From an uncultured Bacteroidota bacterium (lineage in GTDB: Bacteria > Bacteroidota > Ignavibacteria > Palsa-1295), in NCBI GenBank assembly GCA_963702215.1, contig OY969726.1:3288609-3352608 (forward strand): 64,000 nt of DNA, read 5' to 3'. A model generated the notes under the pieces. That model was not told where the DNA came from, did not search any database, and saw nothing but the letters and a program-made list of their open reading frames with translations. Both the position numbers and the translations under genes were made by a program. Position 1 is the first letter of the stretch. Each line of letters opens with the position of its first letter. Shown piece after piece: positions 2,012 through 58,904 of this stretch.

Positions 2012-3382
2012 CTATTTCTCGCTGTAGGATTTCAGAAGATAGGTGTCCGAACTCGTGGTATTGCCCTGGAGTATTCCTGAGTTTACGATCTCGTCCTGCC
2101 GCTCGGGATAGTACTTGAGCTGTTTTGAATACCAAACCGTCGTCGTTTGTGCGGAGGATGCAACCGGAACTAAGCCACCGAAGGCGGTCGCGGTAAGCGT
2201 TACCGTAATAGAGCCCTGCTCGCATGGGAACGAATGCCCGGCAGCCGTGATCGTCGCTGGCCCTAAATCCTTCGCTGTCGAGGTAAGACTCACGGCGACG
2301 GGCACGGTCGTCCCGCCATACGGCATCGTAATAGTCGAATCGAACAAGGAATTGGATTGCGGCGTCTTGCTCCCGATGGGAATGGTAAACCAACTCAATG
2401 TAATCCCGATCGGAATCGGGATCGAACTCAGGTCCGCGTAGATGGAAATATCGCCATTGGATTCGAGATGAAAATAGGAAATACTTCCATTGCCGCCTTG
2501 TACTTCAACTACGTTCGCCTTCCCACCAAACGAGAGTGTGTTGGTCACAACGGTGTAGGTGGAATCCGAATGCGGGCCGGTTACGCCAGTTGTATCGACG
2601 GCGGAATAATCGTAAGTAAACGTGCTGCCGGAGCTGGGTGTGTTCGAGGCCGAGACTCCCGTTGCGGTTAGCGTGCTCACGGCGTAATGCTGCGTGCCGC
2701 CGGCGGCGTAGTGAATCGAATCTATCGCTGATTGTGGGCCGGGCGCATTGGGGTTGAATTGGAGATGAATCAGGATATAGCCGCCGCCCTGGATGGTCAC
2801 GGGAAGGCGGAAATTCGTATCTTGCGCTTGAACGGAATTCACCGCACTCGAAAGAATCGTTACTGGCTGGTTCCCGGTGTTGACGAGGGCCACCGTGGTA
2901 TCGCGCCACACCCCGACTGCCACGGAACCAAAATCAACTTCTGCCGGCACGAAGAGGCTTCCTGAAGTTCCACCGGTCGTTCCGCCGCCGGTATCCGTCG
3001 CATCCAGCGTCAGTAGGGCCGTGTAGTTCTTCCCCGATTCGATGTAACGAAGCGTATCGGTTCCATTGGTCGTTTGCGATGAAGGTGTGAATCTTATCGC
3101 GATCGTGTGGGAACCATCCGGAGCCAGCGAGACCACATGAGTAAAGTTCGTATCCGTGACCGAGGGCGAAGCGCCACTCGCGGTAATGGTTACACTATCG
3201 ATCGCCTCATCGAATAACTCGACGGTGGTATCTTTGGGTTGGCCGCTTGGATCGGAACCAAAATTAATCGCATGAGGAATGATAACCAGCCCGCCGGAAC
3301 CGGCACCAGAGATGGGAGAACTCGGCGAGGAACAGCCCGCGAAGAAGGCGGCGACGAAGAGAGCCAGTAATGTGCGAGTCAT
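2012..3382 (-). CDS. lipoprotein with repeated Ig-like (choice-of-anchor-D-like) domains
   Basis: N-terminus MTRTLLALFVAAFFAGCSS is a lipobox. The protein is Gly/Thr/Ser-rich with repeated VDFGSVAVG...NTGN..VTI motifs. Confidence 0.45.
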   Translation of the reverse strand: MTRTLLALFVAAFFAGCSSPSSPISGAGSGGLVIIPHAINFGSDPSGQPKDTTVELFDEAIDSVTITASGASPSVTDTNFTHVVSLAPDGSHTIAIRFTPSSQTTNGTDTLRYIESGKNYTALLTLDATDTGGGTTGGTSGSLFVPAEVDFGSVAVGVWRDTTVALVNTGNQPVTILSSAVNSVQAQDTNFRLPVTIQGGGYILIHLQFNPNAPGPQSAIDSIHYAAGGTQHYAVSTLTATGVSASNTPSSGSTFTYDYSAVDTTGVTGPHSDSTYTVVTNTLSFGGKANVVEVQGGNGSISYFHLESNGDISIYADLSSIPIPIGITLSWFTIPIGSKTPQSNSLFDSTITMPYGGTTVPVAVSLTSTAKDLGPATITAAGHSFPCEQGSITVTLTATAFGGLVPVASSAQTTTVWYSKQLKYYPERQDEIVNSGILQGNTTSSDTYLLKSYSEK

Positions 3383-8931: not shown

Positions 8932-9585
8932 TTACTGTGCCGAGCTCCGCTTCACGCCCTGATGCTCGTGGACCGCGGGTCTCGGAGCCTCTTTCTGCAC
9001 CGGCTTCATCGGCTTCGCTTCCTTCTTCTCGGTCTTTCTTTCCATCTTGGCCTGAGCTGTATCGGCTGCGTTTCCGGCAGCGGTTACCGCATATTGCTGC
9101 ACTTGCTGCGCGAGGCTGGTATGCGTGTCCTGAAAACTTTTCCATTTGTCATTCAGGTCGTTGAAGTTCGTGCCTAACTGATCGTCCGCGTTCTTGAATG
9201 CATCGGCGCCCTGGTCCGGAGTAGCATTCATATACGCCTTCGTGCTATCGATGAGTACGTTGATCGAATCGCCATTCGCCTCGTGTTTCGCAACATCGGC
9301 CTTGAGCGCGCCGATTTTCGCGGTATCCGCACCCGGCTTGACCGAGGCCATCGTGAGCGTAGCCAACCATTGGTCGTGATCCGACTTCATTGAGGTCATG
9401 CTCGTGTTAATTTGATTGATGAGCGTTTCGGCCGAAGCCTTCTTCGCGGCGTAATCCGTTTCGAGTTCCGTGTTCCGTTTGCTGCACGCCGCGAGGTTCA
9501 GGCTGAGGGCTGCGGCGGCCGCCAGGATCGAGAGATTCCGTTTGGAGAGTGTCATAGTGATTCGGGTTGATATGAGAAATTTCAC
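8932..9585 (-). CDS. hypothetical lipoprotein
   Basis: 217 aa with a lipobox (...AAAALSLNLAACSKR). It is Ala/Lys/Asp-rich and has a low-complexity charged C-terminus. Confidence 0.45.
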   Translation of the reverse strand: MKFLISTRITMTLSKRNLSILAAAAALSLNLAACSKRNTELETDYAAKKASAETLINQINTSMTSMKSDHDQWLATLTMASVKPGADTAKIGALKADVAKHEANGDSINVLIDSTKAYMNATPDQGADAFKNADDQLGTNFNDLNDKWKSFQDTHTSLAQQVQQYAVTAAGNAADTAQAKMERKTEKKEAKPMKPVQKEAPRPAVHEHQGVKRSSAQ

Positions 9586-44108: not shown

Positions 44109-44394
44109 GTTCGTTTGAAAAAAGTGAAACCCTCTAAATAGAAGACCCGCGAAACGGCAAAAGGTAACAGCCTTTTCGAAGAATTATTCCCTGAAAATGA
44201 AGCAGCGTTCATGCCGCCCAGTGCCGGAGGCACGCAGTAGCCCCGAAGGGGGGAAGTACCCGCAGCCCAGAGCCTGCCCTCGACCCGATCGCGGGTGGAA
44301 CGAAGTGGAACCCTGGGTACGCAAAGCCATCATAACCCGTTAGCCCTGCAAGGGCGATGTACGCCGATTCAGTCCCGTTAGGGACGGCATATTC

Positions 44395-44567
44395 GTAGCC
44401 CAGTGCGTAAGCGCTGGGATTGGGATTGAAAAAAGATTCCATAGCTCCGTAGGAGCGATATATTCCCCGCGTGATAATATGCCGCTCCTACGGAGCTTGG
44501 GATTCTTTGGCTTTTCGCAACCCAGCGCTTACGCACTGGGCTACGAATATTGCACTCCTACGGAGCT
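44395..44567. repeat. large nested inverted repeat (~65-nt arms) immediately after the last small ORF of the island
   Basis: Arm 1 at 44395..44457 consists of block A (GTAGCCCAGTGCGTAAGCGCTGGG), a spacer, then block B (AGCTCCGTAGGAGCG). Arm 2 at 44483..44544 is its reverse complement, with blocks A and B perfect and the middle divergent. A third B-like copy lies at 44553..44567. Confidence 0.6.
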
Positions 44568-44693
44568 GGGATTCGTTCCCCCCACAATCCTGATTTCCTC
44601 CGCGCTTAAACCGTAAAGCTGATAGACGAGTGTATCGATCTCCGCACGCGCGCCCGCGATCTGTCGGGTGAGGAGGGTGCGATCAGACATGCA
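44541..44693 (-). other. 50-aa ORF that consists only of the conserved C-terminal tail of a Type II/IIG N6-adenine methyltransferase (remnant)
   Basis: MSDRTLLTRQIAGARAEIDTLVYQLYGLSAEEIRIVGGTNPSSVGVQYS. It is about 80% identical at the nucleotide level to the 3' end of the R-M gene at 45751..45860. Its ATG overlaps the stop of the 203-aa ORF (ATGTCTGA). Confidence 0.4.
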
Positions 44694-45294
44694 TGAGTTC
44701 TCGGAACTTTGCCTCGACCTCGTGCCTGGTCGCTGCAATCTGACTCTCCAATAAAAGCAGCGCCTGTTGCGAAGTCTTAACAATGTCCAGCTGGCTATTC
44801 GCTCCAACACCAACGCCATACAAAGCATTTTGGAGCGGCGCAAAGGCGGCATCAATTTCGGAACGAAGTTTGTCGATTTGCTCGCAGAGCGAATCATTCA
44901 GCCAAATTTTGTTCGATTCATATGAAGCAACGAAATCTTTCAGGGCGTGCAAGAAATCATCCGCCTTAGGCCATTTGCTTTCGTGAGCCTCACCGGGAAC
45001 ACGTATAAGGTCCCTTCCTTTGCCAAACACCTGCGACAACTTAGAATATAGTTCCTTAAATACAACACCCTGTTCCTCTCGTAATCGAGCCAACCGGATC
45101 TCGTCCCACTTGTTGTTTCGGGCTATTTCACCTTTCAATTTTTCCAGTTCTCGATTTGAAGCACTGGCTAATTCGTTTTTGTATTTTTCCAAACCTTTCT
45201 CGGCTACCACTTCAGCCCGCTTCTTCACATAAGCGGGTATTCCGATCACTATCACAGCGAGAAGCGCTATGTCGATAATGTTTGATATGCTCAT
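44683..45294 (-). CDS. hypothetical membrane-anchored coiled-coil protein (cassette gene in the R-M island)
   Basis: 203 aa. N-terminal TM helix IIDIALLAVIVIGIPAYV, then Lys/Glu-rich coiled-coil. Its ATG overlaps the stop of an upstream R-M tail fragment (ATGA). Confidence 0.45.
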   Translation of the reverse strand: MSISNIIDIALLAVIVIGIPAYVKKRAEVVAEKGLEKYKNELASASNRELEKLKGEIARNNKWDEIRLARLREEQGVVFKELYSKLSQVFGKGRDLIRVPGEAHESKWPKADDFLHALKDFVASYESNKIWLNDSLCEQIDKLRSEIDAAFAPLQNALYGVGVGANSQLDIVKTSQQALLLLESQIAATRHEVEAKFRELMHV

Positions 45295-45400
45295 GCTTTT
45301 CCCTCCACTATCCTAATTTCCTCCTCGCTCAAACCGTAAAGCTGGTAGACGAGATTATCGATCTCCGCGTCCACGCCCGCGATGTGGCGGGTGAGGATAA
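45291..45400 (-). repeat. second copy (~92% identical) of the R-M gene 3' tail, an in-frame remnant encoding ...LTRHIAGVDAEIDNLVYQLYGLSEEEIRIVEGKA*
   Basis: Aligns to 45751..45860, the true 3' end of the R-M gene. It is preceded on the - strand by a terminator hairpin. Confidence 0.6.
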
Positions 45401-45429
45401 TAAAAAGGGCATACAATGATGTATGCCCT
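45396..45429 (-). terminator. rho-independent terminator for the - strand
   Basis: Read on the - strand: AGGGCATACA-TCAT-TGTATGCCCT followed by TTTTTATTAT. This is a 10-bp stem plus a T-run, downstream of the small SD-led ORF. Confidence 0.6.
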
Positions 45430-45437
45430 AAGTGGTA

Positions 45438-45599
45438 TCAAGTTTTCTTGACCCATGTCGCTCCGTGCGCGTTAGCATCGCCATTCACATTACACGGAGG
45501 GAACGTTTCCCCTGACTTAATGTAGATGGTATGAGTAGTGTGTTTCGAACAGTAATAAGTACCGCTAGATTCACATTTACCTCCCGTAGATCCGGTCAT
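45438..45599 (-). CDS. small (53 aa) Cys-containing protein with a canonical Shine-Dalgarno sequence
   Basis: AAAGGAGGTGATTAA-ATG; MTGSTGGKCESSGTYYCSKHTTHTIYIKSGETFPPCNVNGDANAHGATWVKKT, stop TGA. Not in the ORF track because it is under 60 aa. It sits in an AT-rich stretch immediately downstream of the R-M gene. Confidence 0.5.
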   Translation of the reverse strand: MTGSTGGKCESSGTYYCSKHTTHTIYIKSGETFPPCNVNGDANAHGATWVKKT

Positions 45600-45750
45600 T
45601 TAATCACCTCCTTTCATTAGCAATTATTATCACTCATGTTCAGTGAGTGCTAATATATTAACTATGTTTGGAGCCAAGTGAATCCTCGAAAACACGGTTG
45701 TTTATCCACATAAATGATAACGACTTCCCGTTTTTCCACATTCTAAAAAA

Positions 45751-48700
45751 TCAACCCTCCATTATCCTAATTTCCTCCTCGCTCAAACCGTAAAGCTGGT
45801 AAACGAGTTTATCGATCTCCGCATCCACGCCCGCGATCTGGCGAGTGAGGAGGGTGCGATTCTGGCCATCGCTCATCTTTTTAAGTTGGTTATGCAGATC
45901 GATTTCCCTTTCAACGTATTTTTCCATCAGCTTTATCTGCTTCGTTGAAACATCTTTTGGTACGGGAATCTTTCGCAAATCGCCGACCGATAATCGCGGA
46001 AAGGCATTCGCTACCATCTTGTTCGAAATGTACGGGTAAATTCTTGAGATTAATGTGGAATCTAAAATTCCCACAAGATATTTCATTGAGTAGTCGGATT
46101 CGGGAAGTGGATTGATGTTGAGGATGGTCTTGTAATTACAATATGTATCCTCCGTGTACGTTGCTTGCAGTGCGTGGGGTTGCTTTCCCGATATTTCGCG
46201 AATCAGAATTCTTGGCCCTTGTAGCCAGTCCATCGTTCGGTAATCGTGAAGCCAGGGGCCGTACTTAATCCACTGGCCTCTCACCCTCTCAAGCTCATAG
46301 CGAGAAACGTCACTACCCGCAAGCTCTGGAAGATATTCGGAAGACAGCTTTTTATCGGCATGAAAAACTCTGTTCTCGATTTGTTGTTTTGTGTGCTTAG
46401 AACTATTGTATGCCTGGCATCCGAGCGAAGCACGCGCGACCGTTCCCAGCGGAATCGATTGCTTTAGGATTTGATCCGCGAGTTTTCCCATAGGATCCAT
46501 CCTTCTCGTCTCAATGATGTGTCCTTCGTTTTTAAACCAATCAATCTGCTTTGCGTGGTATTCTTGCCCGCTCGTAGGATCGGAATCGGCGTCGATAACA
46601 CGCACTTCGTGCGAATCGCTGGCTACTATTTTCGAAAGAAAGACCAGCGCCGTGTTTACGGTTGCGGACTCGAAAACGAATCCTTTGAATGTTACGAGTT
46701 CGTCTATCTGAGTCTTTTCAAGAATATACTTCCTTAAGGACTTGGTAAAGACCTGAGTAAGCCAAGGATTTGGAACGATAAATCCAAGCTTTCCTTCTGG
46801 CTTGAGCAGTTCTATTCCTCGTTCGATAAAAAGCTGAAATAGGTCTGCCTTGTATTCTGCTGTTCCGAAGTGTAATAAATATTTGGCGGTTCTAGCATCG
46901 AACAGGTCTTTACCTATAACCACATACGGCGGGTTCCCAATGACGACATCGAAGCCGCCGTTTCGCATAATATCGGGGAAGGCTTGCTTCCAGTCCATCG
47001 GATTTATTTTGGCGGTGTCCGGGGAATAACCACCCCCTGCCCCCTCCTTGAAAAGGAGGGGGTTGTTGTAGTAATCGGTTCCGATGAGGGAGTTGCCGCA
47101 GAGGATGTTCCGGTCGAGATCGGGGAGCAGTCGCTCGGCGGTGTCGTAGGCAATGCGCTGGGTTCCTCCGTCGCTCCCGCCGCTCTCTCCGCCTTCGAGG
47201 ACTTTGAGCATCAAATTCAGCTTCGCCACTTCCACCGCGTTCCTGTCAATATCGACGCCGTGAATGTGGTCGAGCAAGATGCGCTTCCGCTCGCGCGGGG
47301 AAAGGCGATAATCTTTTTTCGTGGGGTCGGAAGTGGGAATGCGGTCGAGAACTTTCTTTTTTGTCCAGGATTCCGGCTCATTGGCGAGATAGAATTTGAG
47401 ATACCAATCGAGTAAATACTGATACGCTCCGAGCAGGAAGGAACCGGAGCCGCAGGCGGGATCTAAAATTGTGGGTGTGGGACATGCTTTAGCTTGTCCC
47501 TTCTTATCTTTGGACCAAGCTAAAGCATGGTCCACACCCAGCATTTTTCCGACGGTATTCTTCACAATATAATCGACAATATAGCTCGGCGTGTAATAGA
47601 CGCCGCCGGCTTTTTTTACTTCGGGCTTTTCTTCGACGCGGGCGTTGCCGCCTTTCGTCAGCGTGATGACTTGTCCCAGGAACTGCTCATACACGTGGCC
47701 CAGAATATCCGAGGGAACGATATCGAATGCATACGGACTTTCGGGATAATAAAGATGCCTGATGATGTCGGTGAGCACTTTATCGTCAATGGCAAGTCGC
47801 GGGGTGAGCGCGTCGAATCCTTCGCGGCTCTTCTCTTTCCTGAAATGGAAGAGACCGGAATTGAAGCGGTCGTCGGCGGCGCGGAAACGGTTGAGGAGAT
47901 TCTGGTAAACAGAACCAACCACCCCCCGTCCCCCGCCTTGAAAAGGCGGGGGAGTTTTTGTTTTTTGGGTTCCGTCTATGAGATAGCGCAGCCTGGCGTC
48001 GAGGGCAAGGTTCCCATATTGCTCGATCTTTCGGTCCCTCGCAGATGCGGAGCATGATAATGCGGTCGAGCGTAATTTGCACGGCGCTGTTTAGCTCGGA
48101 TTCGGACAGCCCTTTGTTGCGGAGCGCGATATTTTCGGCAAGCTTCTTTCGCCAGGCGATCATATCGGCGAGGAACTGTTTATCGAAGGGCGTGGTGCCG
48201 CGCTTGCCTTTTGCCTGCGCGGCGTATTTATCGAAGCGTCCTTTCCAGACGGCTTCGCGGGAAAACGTTTCCACGAGCCAGTCCCATTTCTCTTCGTACT
48301 GTTCGAAGTTGAAAAATTCGATGCGGTCTTTATAGGGCGCGTCGGTGGGTTTGGGAACGGAAGTAGTTTGATAAACGGCGAATTCCTCGAAATCGGAAAG
48401 CAGTGAGATGGAAAGTCCGGCGCTCCAGGCGTAGCGTTTCAATTGATAGGCCGGCGCGACGTCCGTTGCGAGGTGAACTTTGGGCGCTTTGCATTCGAGA
48501 AAGAATTTCTTCTCGCTGCCCACGCGGAAGGTATAATCGGGAGCCTTCATTGCGCCTTCAATGCGAAGCGAATCCTCGTGGATGACCTCTTTGTAGGCTT
48601 CGGCGAGTCCGGCACGATTCGTCATATCCCATCCGAGTTCCCACCAGAAGGGATTGATAAATTCCTCCCGAAGCTGCGCTTCTTTGTATTGGGCGCTCTT

Positions 48701-48766
48701 ATAGGATTCGCGGTGATCGCGAAACCGCTCGACGAGATCCTGAATTGTGCGAGGAAACATGTACAA
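45751..48766 (-). CDS. Type IIG restriction-modification enzyme (MmeI/Eco57I-like): N-terminal endonuclease, gamma-class N6-adenine methyltransferase and C-terminal target-recognition region, split by a frameshift
   Basis: ORF 47786..48766 gives the N-terminal nuclease domain (FINPFWWELGWD...LDRIIMLRICE). In a -1 frame it continues as DRKIEQYGNLALDARLRYLIDG...VVGSVYQNLLNRFRAADDRFNSGLFHF into ORF 45751..47922 (motif I DPACGSGSFLLGAYQ, motif IV DVVIGNPPYV, conserved tail LVYQLYGLSEEEIRIMEG). There is an extra G in the GGG run near 48036. Confidence 0.8.
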
Positions 48767-49104
48767 AAATACGAAAACATTGAACCTGGATCACGCGAAT
48801 GATCGCTCATCCGCTGCGGATTGGATGGATTTTCGGGATTACTATCGGAAAAAACGAAGAGTTCCAGTCCAAGGGGAACTATTAGATACGTATCTTATGT
48901 TTGATATTATGGAAGGGTTGTATTCGTTAAATGATTCGTATCTTTCATGAAGAAAGGATTGTGATTCTTTGAGAAATAAATATTGGTTCATGAACACGCA
49001 TCCAACACACACTATAAAACATTTTGGGCTTCTTTCTAGCAGAATGAAAAAATCAAACGTGCTCATTATGGATTTTTCCGATTTTTCTTCACTGCCTTCC
49101 CAGT

Positions 49105-50499
49105 TTATGCCCCGTATTTCTCCGGCCACAGCGCCTTCAATCGTTGCAGAATCGTCTTTTCGCGGCCTTGCTCGGTGGGGTGGTAGAAGACTTTATCCTG
49201 GAGCGATTCTGGTAGATACGTTTCGCCTTTGGCGAAATGTCCGGGCTCGGAGTGGGCATAGCGGTAACCTTCGTGGTAACCTAATTCCTTCATGAGCTTT
49301 GTTGGCGCATTGCGGAGATGAAGTGGCACCGGCTGGTCGGGATTTTGGCGGGCTTCTTCCATTGCCGCGCCGATGGCAACGGTCGTCGCATTGGATTTGG
49401 CCGCGGATGCGAGATATGCAACCACCTGCCCGAAAATAAGCTGCGCCTCGGGGTAACCGACGGCACGGACGGCATCCCAGCAGGCCGTGGCGAGCAGGAG
49501 CGCATTGGGATCGGCATTGCCGATGTCCTCGCTGGCGAAGATAATCATGCGGCGGGCGATGAATTCCAAATCCTCGCCGGATTCGATCATGCGGGCGCAC
49601 CAATAGAGCGCGGCGTTGGGATCCGATCCGCGCATGGATTTGATGAAGGCACTGATGATATTATAATGCTCCTCGCCGGCTTTATCGTAACGGGAAGCTT
49701 TTCGCCCGAAGGCGGCTTCGATGGTTTCAACGGTAAGGCCGAGCGAGGACGCTCGACCTACGCGTAGGTCGGTCGTCCTCGCCCGACTCTCCGGTTCTGC
49801 AAGCTGCACGGCGAGTTCCAGGGCGTTCAGCATCTTGCGAGCATCGCCGCCGGAAAGGGCCATGAGGGCGCGGCGAACATCTTCGGAGAGCGTAATGTCG
49901 AGCGATTTTAGTTCTTCGTCTTCTTTTAAGGCGCGGTCGAGCAGCGTTTCCAAATCTTCGCGTGAGAGACGTTCGAGCACGAAAACGCGGGCGCGGGAAA
50001 GCAGCGGCGAGATAACTTCGAAGGAGGGATTTTCCGTCGTCGCGCCGATAAGAGTTACCACACCGTGCTCGACCGCGCCCAAAAGCGCATCTTGCTGCGA
50101 TTTCGAGAAGCGGTGGACTTCGTCAATAAAAAGCACGCTCCGGTCTTCGGCGGTCGTGTTCGCTTCGCGCGCTTGTTCGATAGCCTCGCGCAAATCCTTG
50201 ACTCCGGCGCTGATGGCCGAAAGCGAAAAAAATGGCGCGCGGACCGAGCGAGCGAGAATATTCGCAATCGTCGTCTTGCCGGAACCCGGCGGACCCCAAA
50301 AGATCATCGAGTGCAGCTTGCCGCGCTCGATCATCATGCGGAGCGGCTTTCCTGGACCGACGAGCGCGCGTTGCCCCACAACTTCGTCTAAGGTTCGCGG
50401 GCGCATTCGTTCCGCGAGGGGAAGGAAGGAATGTGGATGGGTAAGCGCTAATGGGTCGGTTTCCGAGCATTCGAGCTTTGGTTGCTTTTGTCGTGGCAT
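49105..50499 (-). CDS. rarA: replication-associated recombination protein A (AAA+ ATPase MgsA/RarA)
   Basis: Walker A GPPGSGKTT, Walker B VLFIDEVHRF, and a MgsA C-terminal domain. Confidence 0.85.
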   Translation of the reverse strand: MPRQKQPKLECSETDPLALTHPHSFLPLAERMRPRTLDEVVGQRALVGPGKPLRMMIERGKLHSMIFWGPPGSGKTTIANILARSVRAPFFSLSAISAGVKDLREAIEQAREANTTAEDRSVLFIDEVHRFSKSQQDALLGAVEHGVVTLIGATTENPSFEVISPLLSRARVFVLERLSREDLETLLDRALKEDEELKSLDITLSEDVRRALMALSGGDARKMLNALELAVQLAEPESRARTTDLRVGRASSLGLTVETIEAAFGRKASRYDKAGEEHYNIISAFIKSMRGSDPNAALYWCARMIESGEDLEFIARRMIIFASEDIGNADPNALLLATACWDAVRAVGYPEAQLIFGQVVAYLASAAKSNATTVAIGAAMEEARQNPDQPVPLHLRNAPTKLMKELGYHEGYRYAHSEPGHFAKGETYLPESLQDKVFYHPTEQGREKTILQRLKALWPEKYGA

Positions 50500-56435: not shown

Positions 56436-58904
56436 TCATCCTTTCCAATTAACGCGACGGACTTCGTTCCCGTCACTCACGAGGAGCACGGCGCCATCGC
56501 GATCCGTTCGCAAGACGCTCGCGCCGCCCGCCATCCATCGCCGCACAATTGCCGGAGCCGGATGGCCGAAGTGGTTATACTCGCCCACCGAAATAACCGC
56601 ATACTGGGGGCTGGCCCCCGCGATAAATGCTCGCGAAGAACTCGTCAAACTACCGTGATGTGCCACTTTCACCACGTTCGTGCGGAGAAAGCTGCCGTAA
56701 TTCGCAAGCATCGCTTCCTCATCGCTCCGTTCGAGATCGCCCAAAAAGAGAAAGCTTGTATGGCGATAAACAAGTTTGAATGCCAGCATTCCGTTATGGA
56801 TGTTTTCTCCGTAGTCGGTAAGTTCCGACGTTCGAACGTGTGGATCGGGGCTGGTGACATACAACACCAAATCGGAATCGAGCTGTAATGTATCGCCGCG
56901 CGCAAGCACACGCGTGAGAACGCGGAAACTATTAGCTTCGGTATCCAATTGGCGGGCGAGGAAACCGGGAACACGCTCGCCGCTCGAATAAAGCGCTCCC
57001 ACGCTACAATGTTCGAGCACGGCCGGCGCGCCGCCATAGTGATCCACATGCATGTGGCTGATAAAGCCGGCATCGATCCTCATAATATCCTCAGCGCGGA
57101 GAAATGGCAGCGCTGCCTGCTCAATGGCTGCGCCAGAGTAATTCGCCTTTCCAAAGTCGATGAAATAGTTTTTTCCCGCGGGCGTGTGAAGCAGAATGCA
57201 ATCGCCCTGGCCGACATCGAAAAACATGACTTGAAGCTTCCCCTCGTTTCGCGCCAATACGGAATTCGAGAAGGGCACTCCGATTTCGAAGAGCGCGAAA
57301 AACGCTGCAAGCGAAAGCAGGATTCGTCCCGCAAATTGCGGCCTCGCTGTTGCACGAACGCAATATAGAATGGCGGCGGCAAGCAATGTGAGAAAAATCC
57401 AATTGGGAGGTGCTGCCGCGTGTGCCGCATGAGGGAGATGCGCTGAAAAATGTGTCAGCAGAAGGAGCGCATGTGTCAGATACGTCGCGGCCTCGCCATA
57501 AAGTTGGCCAAGCCATTGCGAGATGGCTGTGACCGGAATGAGCAGAAACCCAAGCGCGGTGATGATCGCGGAAAGGGGAACCAGCGGCACGTTCGCGGCG
57601 AGGCCAATGAACGAGATGCGATAAAAATGCGTCGCGATTACCGGATAGGATGCCAGCGAGGCGCCGATGGAAAGCGCGGTTGCAGTTCCCACTTCTCGCG
57701 CGAAGCGGGAGTGAAGCAGGCGCCCGTCGCTTCCCGCAGCAGGGAGCATATTCGGCGTTTCATTGCGGAAAAACCAGAGTATTTTCGGAGCAATCACAAT
57801 CATTCCCAAGACGCCGGCATAGGAAAGCTGGAACCCGACATCGAACAGATCGAAGGGACGCAATACCAGGTTGATCGCAGCCGCGCTCATCACAATGTTC
57901 AGCGGATCGGGTTTGCGTTCAAGGAGGCGAGCGGTAAGATAGAACTCGATCATGAGGAGCGCTCGAACGACGCTCGGCTGGAAGCCAACGATGGCGGCAT
58001 AGAGCAAGACCGTTCCCATCGTAATTGCCGTGCGGGTCCGGAACCCATAAATTCCGAAGAGACGGAGAAGCTGTGCAACGACGAGCGCGACGATCGCAAC
58101 ATTAAATCCGCTCACGGCCAAAATATGGGCCACGCCGGACGTTGTGAAATCGCCAAGCGTTTCTTTATCCATATCGCTCCGATCGCCGAGGACGACGGCT
58201 TCCACAAACCCTCGCGCATCGGGATCGGCAATTGCTGAATCGAGCAAGGTAAGAATCGCACTATGTGCGGCAGCCACCGTATTCGATATGCCGCTCAGGA
58301 TTCCGGGAGGCGGTCTGCTCAGAATGTAATAATCGAATCGCGATTCAATATGACCCTGCGCTTCCGCGTCGAGTTGGCGCTGAATCCTCCGATCACTGGC
58401 AAACTCGAATGGGTTGGTTGCACTCTGGAATGGTTCCAGTGAGCAATAGACGCGTAGCCGGGCTCCGGCATCCGGCCGGCGAACATGCCCGTGCGCGCTT
58501 TTGGAAAGATAAAGAATGATTCTACCGGCGATGGGTACCGCATGATCGCGTGAGATGGCAAGGCTGTCCGTTTCGAAAAGCCACTGGTATTCCCGTTTGG
58601 TTTCATCGGTCGAGAGGAGTGTGCCGGTAACGACAACGCTGGCAGGCTTCAGCGACGCGATGTTCGTGAGCGTCGTATCGCGATAGCTTGTCCATTCAAG
58701 CGAAGCGAGCAAAGCGCCGATGAGTGCAAGGGCCGCGGCGAGCGATAAAAGCCGCACGAGCAAATTTTGCCTGAGAACGAGTAAGAGAAGTATCCCGGCA
58801 AGCGCGAATGGACCGATCGCCGGGATTAGCGTTGGGAATTGCGCTGCCAGCGAAATACCGAGCGCAAGCGAAGCGGCTGCAAAAAAAGCGGGACGATGTA
58901 TCAC
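56436..58904 (-). CDS. comEC: DNA internalisation/competence protein ComEC/Rec2 (membrane domain plus C-terminal metallo-beta-lactamase domain)
   Basis: 822 aa, polytopic. C-terminus ...DAGFISHMHVDHYGGAPAVL...KVAHHGSLTSSSRAFIAGASPQYAVISVGEYNHFGHP. Confidence 0.8.
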   Translation of the reverse strand: MIHRPAFFAAASLALGISLAAQFPTLIPAIGPFALAGILLLLVLRQNLLVRLLSLAAALALIGALLASLEWTSYRDTTLTNIASLKPASVVVTGTLLSTDETKREYQWLFETDSLAISRDHAVPIAGRIILYLSKSAHGHVRRPDAGARLRVYCSLEPFQSATNPFEFASDRRIQRQLDAEAQGHIESRFDYYILSRPPPGILSGISNTVAAAHSAILTLLDSAIADPDARGFVEAVVLGDRSDMDKETLGDFTTSGVAHILAVSGFNVAIVALVVAQLLRLFGIYGFRTRTAITMGTVLLYAAIVGFQPSVVRALLMIEFYLTARLLERKPDPLNIVMSAAAINLVLRPFDLFDVGFQLSYAGVLGMIVIAPKILWFFRNETPNMLPAAGSDGRLLHSRFAREVGTATALSIGASLASYPVIATHFYRISFIGLAANVPLVPLSAIITALGFLLIPVTAISQWLGQLYGEAATYLTHALLLLTHFSAHLPHAAHAAAPPNWIFLTLLAAAILYCVRATARPQFAGRILLSLAAFFALFEIGVPFSNSVLARNEGKLQVMFFDVGQGDCILLHTPAGKNYFIDFGKANYSGAAIEQAALPFLRAEDIMRIDAGFISHMHVDHYGGAPAVLEHCSVGALYSSGERVPGFLARQLDTEANSFRVLTRVLARGDTLQLDSDLVLYVTSPDPHVRTSELTDYGENIHNGMLAFKLVYRHTSFLFLGDLERSDEEAMLANYGSFLRTNVVKVAHHGSLTSSSRAFIAGASPQYAVISVGEYNHFGHPAPAIVRRWMAGGASVLRTDRDGAVLLVSDGNEVRRVNWKG

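Follow-up and report, generated by a model that had tools for sequence, protein, structure and literature searches.

How defence islands are assembled is an open question, since many of them carry no recognisable mobility gene. The question is raised here by a Type IIG restriction-modification (R-M) gene on the minus strand of a 64,000-nt stretch of DNA from an uncultured Bacteroidota bacterium (GenBank assembly GCA_963702215.1, contig OY969726.1, positions 3,288,609 to 3,352,608). The whole of this stretch is referred to below as the window, and coordinates are those of the window. The 3' end of the R-M gene, its tail, occurs three times in the window, and a different small gene lies between each copy and the next. 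How could a gene come to be followed by two further copies of its own end? Our analysis indicates that the extra tails are probably scars left when recombination took place repeatedly at the conserved tail and added cargo genes downstream of the R-M gene.

The tail array in the window

A repeat search of the window identified one direct-repeat family, with three 106-nt copies at 44578-44683, 45301-45406 and 45755-45860. The copies are numbered here from the R-M gene outward as tails 1, 2 and 3. In the alignment, tails 1 and 2 are 92% identical over 99 nt, tails 2 and 3 are 85% identical and tails 1 and 3 are 81% identical. A 50-nt tail pattern gave no chance matches in 100 shuffles, and six-frame motif scans found no further tail copies in the 64-kb window beyond these three.

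On the minus strand, the order is the R-M gene with tail 1, a promoter-like site, a 53-aa open reading frame (ORF), a terminator-like hairpin, tail 2, a 203-aa ORF, tail 3 and a palindrome. Tail 1 (45751..45867; ...RTLLTRQIAGVDAEIDKLVYQLYGLSEEEIRIMEG*) was identified by repeat search, alignment and tail profile and represents the functional 3' end of the R-M gene, whose ORF stops at 45751 and reads ...IRIMEG* (...LVYQLYGLSEEEIRIMEG*). It is followed by a putative promoter (TTAGCA-16-GATAAT, 45626..45653), a pattern match from a consensus scan, and then by the first cargo gene, a Cys/His-rich ORF of 53 aa with an AGGAGG ribosome-binding site (45438..45599; ORF list and sequence reading). This cargo ends in an intrinsic-terminator-like hairpin with a 10-bp stem and a T-run (45406..45429; sequence scan), which directly abuts tail 2. 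Tail 2 (45291..45406; …ILTRHIAGVDAEIDNLVYQLYGLSEEEIRIVEGKA; repeat search and alignment) is a relic copy ending in ...IVEGKA. It has no ATG start, only an in-frame TTG upstream, and its TGA overlaps the ATG of the 203-aa ORF (ATGA). The second cargo gene (44683..45294; HMMER, alignment and AlphaFold) encodes a membrane-anchored helical protein of 203 aa from an uncharacterised family of ~200-220-aa proteins, and its stop overlaps the start of the tail 3 ORF at ATGTCTGA. Tail 3 (44541..44693; repeat search and alignment) is a second relic, a 49-aa ORF (MSDRTLLTRQIAGARAEIDTLVYQLYGLSAEEIRIVGG+TNPSSVGVQYS*) with its own ATG. Its homology to the R-M tail spans 44577-44690, and its 3' extension enters the palindromic element. 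Both cargo segments are thereby flanked by direct repeats of 99-114 nt.

The original prediction, made from the sequence alone, had described three same-strand copies of the R-M tail with different small genes between them. The repeat search and the alignment bear this out, and sequence reading likewise confirmed the finer details that it listed: the 53-aa ORF led by a Shine-Dalgarno sequence, the terminator, the ATGA overlap, the overlap of the 203-aa stop with tail 3 and the palindrome. In addition, the GC content is 41-48% at 44800-46800, which covers the target recognition domain (TRD) of the R-M gene and both cargo genes, and at 48600-49200, upstream of the R-M gene, versus 53-60% in the flanks. 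The low GC content of the island is consistent with horizontal acquisition.

Recurrence of tail arrays in related loci

Tail arrays are a recurrent pattern that extends beyond this window. We fetched 160 loci from many phyla that encode relatives of the R-M protein (36-54% aa identity over the best aligned segment), built a 40-position tail profile and searched it in all six frames. After ten duplicate records were removed, the 105 loci with at least 1.5 kb of downstream sequence were counted; individual loci are given below by their L numbers. Extra tails were found in 21 of the 105 (~20%). All 28 relic tails lie on the R-M strand, and 27 of them lie downstream of the R-M gene. Arrays of three or four tails occur in L067, L123, L139, L054 and L077, and the relic-bearing loci belong to Planctomycetota, Chloroflexota, Nitrospirota, Bacteroidota, Desulfobacterota and archaea.

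Tail cores (57 nt) from one locus have 74-98% nucleotide identity, far over the background between loci (mean 66%, 95th percentile 77%). The copies thus arose by duplication at the locus itself and do not stem from unrelated alleles. They share nucleotide homology over 59-173 nt, which as a rule stops within ~25 nt of the stop codon; on the 5' side, the repeat begins anywhere between profile positions 1 and 27. Many relics have no start codon, are cut to 12-25 codons or contain in-frame stops (L025, L141 and L168). Four-nucleotide overlaps of the ATGA type with an ORF of at least 100 aa were found at 8 of 51 tails, functional or relic. Thus, a relic stays joined to the gene that followed it when the relic ended an intact R-M gene.

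The genes between the tails vary by locus and are typical accessory or defence material. The cargo families include a HepT/MNT pair, a DUF6932 nucleotidyltransferase pair, a DUF2283 pair, DUF3800, YhcG PD-(D/E)xK nuclease, KilA-N, FGE-sulfatase, rubrerythrin, PIN_12, NYN, PDDEXK_3, AAA_15/AAA_21, T5orf172, a DDE transposase and small membrane proteins without a family. Their functions at these loci are putative. Of the 40 cargo ORFs with 100 aa or more counted in a greedy ORF census, 27 lay on the R-M strand. The genes past the last relic are housekeeping genes. No integrase or recombinase was present among the 25 listed of the 46 Pfam families matched by 47 ORFs downstream of the arrays, nor was a transposase or integrase found among the window cargo proteins with Pfam and PADLOC. 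Recombination at the conserved tail that adds cargo and duplicates the tail, as originally predicted, is the best reading.

The end of the tail is also a boundary of homology. In four close pairs of R-M alleles (~71-92% nucleotide identity over 1.2-3.3 kb), similarity breaks off precisely where the tail ends, and the genes that follow are not related to each other in DNA or protein. In one of these pairs, L062/L158, the upstream flank is common to both loci. Different cargo in related strains had been proposed as a check on the original prediction, and the four allele pairs supply it in sister lineages, not in the window's own lineage. Pairs in which unrelated DNA follows a single tail are compatible with insertion with long target duplication, although such a pair is not an empty site.

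Several other arrangements were observed among the related loci. In L118, L063 and L019, the whole R-M gene lies between two direct copies (98-174 nt, 87-94% identical) of its own 5' flank (L118, 579-752/3605-3778; L063, 8997-9169/12814-12986; L019, 6-103/3375-3472), which is the classical picture of "insertion with long target duplication." L029 (4755-17685, Candidatus Parabeggiatoa) contains four tandem Type IIG paralogues, the last of which runs off the contig, and one N-terminal relic; two of its tails are 98% identical. A search of a plasmid collection with the consensus tail gave 11 haloarchaeal or methanogen matches with incomplete annotation and no informative array.

Origin of the tail arrays

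The 3' end of the R-M gene, ~100-130 nt, is predicted to encode a conserved C-terminal helix (QIDxLVYxLYGLTxEEIxIVEG) and may be the last DNA that diverged alleles share. It could then act as a homologous anchor when R-M-linked DNA meets a resident R-M gene. At each event the R-M frame would keep a complete tail and acquire one or more new genes next to it, and the older tail would be shoved downstream, still attached to its former follower. Repetition would yield the series tail, cargo, tail, cargo, tail, in which the extra tails themselves are presumably non-functional. In the window, the R-M gene would at one time have ended at the present tail 3, beside the palindromic element. The 203-aa gene, translationally coupled to the R-M stop by the ATGA, would have come with tail 2. 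The self-contained 53-aa transcription unit, which lies between the 92% identical tails 1 and 2, would be the newest arrival. The order tail 3, tail 2, tail 1 is the most economical one.

Two routes may be considered for such events. In one, a circular fragment with a tail and cargo would integrate by a RecA-type single crossover, the circle having come either from tail-tail recombination in another array or from circularised R-M-linked DNA. In the other, linear DNA would be incorporated by one-sided homology-facilitated illegitimate recombination. Both would formally amount to insertion with long target duplication. The extra copies are direct, co-oriented and downstream, with a 3' boundary at the gene end, a variable 5' boundary and native junctions; the R-M frame is intact, and neither a recombinase nor a hairpin was found in the regions examined. 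The pattern therefore fits tail-anchored recombination.

Two loci have further features that touch on this process. A metagenomic contig, L088 (1-3356), has identical 54-nt ends and would correspond to a circle or a tandem unit, 3302 nt in length. Its genes are an R-M gene truncated at the 5' end (668 aa, with the tail) and a 318-aa ORF that overlaps the R-M stop. As a weak pointer, this contig may have arisen by excision or amplification of an R-M gene with its cargo, or else in assembly. Mosaic tails were also considered as proof of crossover; they are suggestive in L067 only, where one difference falls in the first 38 nt versus 16 in the next 79 (binomial P ~0.01, hand count and calculation), and are absent in the window.

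Several points weigh against an origin of the arrays by repeated tail-anchored recombination. In L067, the most similar pair of tails is formed by two distal relics, not by the newest copies beside the R-M gene; events may therefore also have occurred at relic tails, or R-M alleles may have been swapped afterwards. The pooled ratio of nonsynonymous to synonymous substitution rates (dN/dS) of relic versus functional tails is 0.27, which is lower than free decay predicts, although this figure is biased by the detection of relics with a protein profile. L139 has an N-terminus fused to a tail, so decay of tandem paralogues also occurs. For the window itself, no relative closer than 54% aa identity was found in the genome and metagenome contig collections, an exact look-up of the 203-aa protein gave no contig on record, and no empty site or cargo-less allele was seen in the collections searched.

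Among known phenomena, the closest is insertion with long target duplication (Nobusato et al. 2000; Furuta, Abe & Kobayashi 2010), which is documented around R-M genes and involves no mobility genes (PMC2853133). Events of that class leave long, variable direct repeats of more than 30 bp that duplicate the target, and the 2010 survey took an inserted R-M system as its criterion (PMC2853133). As in that class, the inserts in the window lie between direct repeats of more than 30 bp and carry no mobility gene. Unlike that class, the target here is the R-M gene's own 3' coding tail, the same target has been hit repeatedly to give arrays in ~20% of loci from many phyla, and the inserts are small non-R-M cargo (the 53-aa ORF and the 203-aa membrane protein) rather than an R-M system.

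Other elements insert into the 3' end of a gene and supply a replacement end, for example e14 and phage 21 in icd, islands in tRNA genes, and ICESt1 and related cis-mobilizable elements (CIMEs) at fda. Their insertion depends on a tyrosine or serine recombinase and takes place at a fixed crossover core. The tail arrays resemble them in the intact target gene, the partial copy of its 3' end beyond the insert and the tandem arrays with direct repeats. They differ from the accretion of integrative and conjugative elements, CIMEs or prophages in that no recombinase is present in the scanned regions, the inserts are only 0.2-3 kb and the boundaries vary, so that no fixed core is found. Integron arrays are likewise compact, with a fixed upstream anchor, mostly co-oriented units of one or two genes, repeats of ~60-140 nt and common toxin-antitoxin (TA) cargo. 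However, no IntI is encoded within ±10 kb, the repeat is a coding tail without an attC hairpin, and cargo 1 comes with a promoter-like site and a terminator of its own. When both strands of the three tails were folded as single-stranded DNA, no attC-like structure appeared (z -1.15 to +0.27 versus shuffles). The integron-like cassette capture suggested in the original prediction is thus not supported, in view of the absence of a recombinase and of an attC-like fold and of the variable 5' boundaries.

The original prediction had also drawn an analogy to TRD or hsdS shuffling. Furuta et al. in 2011 and 2012 reportedly described domain movement and TRD exchange in Type I and Type IIG specificity regions via conserved sequences that flank the variable parts of R-M genes, and the tail here does correspond to the right-hand conserved flank of the TRD. 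Unlike TRD exchange and hsdS shufflons, the genes between the repeats are unrelated genes and not alternative TRDs, the repeats are direct and there is no sign of phase variation. No TaqI_C or Methylase_S domain was found with Pfam in the inter-repeat ORFs of the window, and no TaqI_C among the scanned cargo proteins of other loci. Also, no invertase or recombinase that could serve a phase-variable hsdS shufflon lies within ±10 kb. With direct rather than inverted repeats and no TaqI_C match among the scanned cargo proteins, the analogy is not supported. Lastly, defence genes are known within or appended to R-M operons, for example PrrC in a Type Ic locus. The tail arrays are similar in that nucleases, TA modules and ATPases lie beside the R-M gene, often co-transcribed with it. 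To our knowledge, descriptions of R-M-embedded defence genes do not involve duplicated gene ends, whereas the tail scars are a structural record of the arrival of the cargo. No description of tail arrays was found in the open-access literature under the motif, Type IIG cassettes or direct repeats, or defence hotspots with duplication.

The alternative that was set beside the original prediction is that Type IIG paralogues once stood in tandem and lost their bodies by deletion, so that only the tails are left; the genes between these would be original or later fill. Such paralogues do exist in the family, complete or partial, in L029, L092 and L120, and L139 contains, besides its tail relics, an internally deleted R-M mini-relic, in which a piece of the N-terminus runs straight into a tail, as well as other pieces of the N-terminus (2963-3265, 852-1010 and 9431-9541). 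However, the 28 tail relics stand against only three N-terminal relics, in two loci, even though the N-terminus is no less conserved than the tail and is more readily detected. Paralogue decay, though it occurs, cannot account for this asymmetry. Apart from L029, L092, L120 and L139, a tblastn search found relic pieces only of the last 8% or less of the R-M protein and no pieces from the middle of the gene. In the window, the space between the tails is wholly taken by unrelated genes. In addition, relics are 74-98% like the neighbouring functional tail, whereas in L029, where tandem paralogues have diverged, their tails share 61-63% identity. Decay of paralogues thus fits poorly and is an unlikely general origin of the arrays.

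More doubtful is a cassette system with a recombinase acting in trans and the tail as its attachment site, either integron-like or by CIME-like accretion at the 3' end of a gene. The array-like architecture, the repeats of ~100 nt and the predominance of the R-M strand among the cargo ORFs would suit it, as would the compactness of the cassettes in the window and L141, where the stop codon or the terminator of one cargo gene marks the start of the next relic. L025 and L141 carry homologous membrane-protein cargo (31% identity, with R-M proteins 49% identical), which in both loci is coupled to the R-M stop and is followed by a relic that starts at nearly the same tail position (20-22 of the profile). 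Against this, no integrase or recombinase was found within ±10 kb in the window or among the listed Pfam families downstream of the arrays, the tails as single-stranded DNA fold no better than shuffles (z, rounded, -1.2 to +0.3), the 5' repeat boundaries and the repeat lengths vary, and the repeats beside the 203-aa-family genes have other boundaries in the window than in L173. Even less probable, in our view, is that the tail copies were kept for a function, as small R-M-interacting proteins or as a portable leader or ribosome-binding site (…GTGGAGGG…). The relics are in frame, the low dN/dS would agree with such a function, and tail 3 has its own ATG and occurs as an exact 49-aa sequence in the public protein collection (sources NCBI and ENA). 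Of these R-M genes, 20% have GGAGG within their final 24 nt, versus 2% of internal windows, and ATGA overlaps with downstream genes are frequent. However, the Glu codons of the tail are not biased to GAG (0.50 versus 0.46), which indicates that the Shine-Dalgarno-like string follows from the amino acid sequence; retention of the tail as a ribosome-binding site was rejected on this basis. The dN/dS value carries the bias of profile-based detection, relics are often without a start codon, truncated or interrupted by stops as described above, and the last relic often has no coupled gene after it, for example tail 3 in the window.

The R-M gene, the 203-aa family and what the arrays may mean

The R-M gene of the window is divided by a +1 frameshift. 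Its 5' part, the nuclease domain, is a separate 326-aa ORF (47786..48766, minus strand; PADLOC and Pfam) that matches PADLOC REase_MTase_IIG PDLC03604 over profile positions 9-251 (E 1e-70) and, weakly, Pfam HSDR_N; the N-terminus scores 128 bits with our N-terminal profile. Sequence reading places the frameshift at an extra G in GAGGGACCG (48035..48039, minus strand). Deletion of one G near 48037 restores a single 1004-aa ORF, and the repaired protein aligns colinearly with its homologues from end to end, through ...RICEDRKIEQYGNLA.... The remainder is a 723-aa ORF (45751..47922, minus strand; Pfam and PADLOC), with its frame open upstream to the frameshift, which comprises the methyltransferase, the TaqI_C specificity domain and the C-terminal tail. 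It matches Pfam Eco57I (3e-40), N6_Mtase (1e-21) and TaqI_C (4e-14) and PADLOC Type IIG (7e-97). VIGNPPYVV in its translation has the NPPY motif of the gamma-class N6-adenine methyltransferases, and the TaqI_C domain is followed by the conserved C-terminal helix, which scores 67 bits with the tail profile. A Type IIG enzyme has all domains in one polypeptide, but here the frameshift parts the nuclease from the methyltransferase. The frameshift in the window may reflect a pseudogene or a sequencing error. The same split between N-terminus and body was found in five related loci (L085, L094, L127, L151 and L159), and its recurrence suggests either repeated loss of restriction with methylation possibly kept, or sequencing errors. 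Two 30-nt GC-rich hairpin-like repeats (CCCCCnnCCCCCnCCTTGAAAAGGnGGGGG, 87% alike) also lie within the R-M coding region (47033-47062 and 47923-47952), both in linkers that are insertions relative to most homologues.

The first cargo product gave no homologues in a word-based homology search and no NCBIfam match, and its Pfam match to YjzC (E 0.0055) is under the cut-off. The 53-aa ORF is a putative gene. For the 203-aa protein, the same kind of word-indexed search saw only the protein itself, and it appeared to be an orphan. This was overturned by an exhaustive HMMER search, which identified 202 representative homologues, all about 200-220 aa. The original prediction of an N-terminal transmembrane (TM) helix followed by a coiled coil was right as to the TM helix, but not as to a simple coiled coil. 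The AlphaFold model (mean predicted local distance difference test score, pLDDT, 90.9) shows a four-helix bundle and, at the N-terminus, a continuous helix over residues 3-97 that takes in the TM segment. Matches to structures in the PDB were generic (FAT domain, chemoreceptor 4HB) with E above 0.02, and the protein has no Pfam, NCBIfam or PADLOC match. Nine of 35 family members weakly match PADLOC PDLC03799 (RTasTM, the TM partner of a defence reverse transcriptase; best E 3e-6). An assignment of the 203-aa protein to RTasTM was rejected, since the window protein itself does not match and no reverse transcriptase is adjacent to family members in the contexts examined. The abortive-infection or membrane-effector role suggested for the 203-aa protein in the original prediction is a putative one, and the membrane proteins of its family, at least 200 in number, are uncharacterised.

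Distant members of this family are solitary genes in TA-rich variable regions and have no tails; the gene is therefore not generally tail-carrying. The closest members, from other metagenomes, share the arrangement of the window. P0006 (31% identity) has tails on both sides, the upstream one overlapping its start. Upstream of P0004 (37% identity) lies a decayed tail that is interrupted by an in-frame stop, and the R-M system adjacent to it is of the unrelated XamI type, with a methylase that lacks such a tail. The tails beside P0004 and P0006 have a common, unusual (R/H)KCxYL variant. These associations indicate that the subfamily has long resided immediately 3' of LYGL-tailed R-M genes, with R-M bodies displaced or replaced around it. 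L168 (4209-6660; also L169 and L170) presents a XamI-type restriction endonuclease and an Eco57I-type methylase without an LYGL tail, upstream of an orphan decayed tail and the closest 203-aa homologue, which are followed by a 245-aa ORF and a HEPN_Cthe2314 protein. It looks like the substitution of one R-M type by another with the old tail left behind.

The palindrome right after tail 3 (44371..44567; inverted repeats and Rfam) is composite, with two inverted Acido-Lenti-1-like copies and a central hairpin between them. The repeat search reported it as a palindrome with 53-nt arms at 44389-44550. Its copies score 34.7 and 27.7 bits against Rfam RF01687 (Acido-Lenti-1), both below the gathering score of 37, and it is the single such element in the 64-kb window. 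Short repeated elements directly after tails were also seen in L008, L030 and L054. The island sits between rarA/cmk and the gene for a protein secreted by the type IX secretion system (T9SS). Pfam scans of the neighbour genes within ±10 kb of the array identified RarA, Cmk, ComEC, Fmt, an acyltransferase and the T9SS protein, and no recombinase. The ComEC/Rec2 competence-channel gene (56436-58904, minus strand) has Competence, DUF4131 and Lactamase_B domains. Since the window encodes ComEC, DNA uptake is plausible, and the host organism may take up DNA naturally; this is a weak pointer.

A further proposal, which we put forward tentatively and regard as possible rather than likely, is that the LYGLTxEEI tail is a recombinase-independent docking site. 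Circles of tail and cargo would excise by tail-tail recombination and reintegrate at similar R-M tails, R-M genes would seed defence islands, and TA and nuclease genes would cross phyla with R-M alleles. Whatever the route, the relic tails document, in the structure of the locus, that genes were gained at one defined place, where the genes of a widespread R-M family end. If the tail is a portable homology arm, this would explain why TA modules and small nucleases cluster beside R-M genes. The mechanism would then become testable in the laboratory, and an orphan LYGLTxEEI tail would be a simple signature for recently acquired accessory and defence genes, including the 203-aa family.

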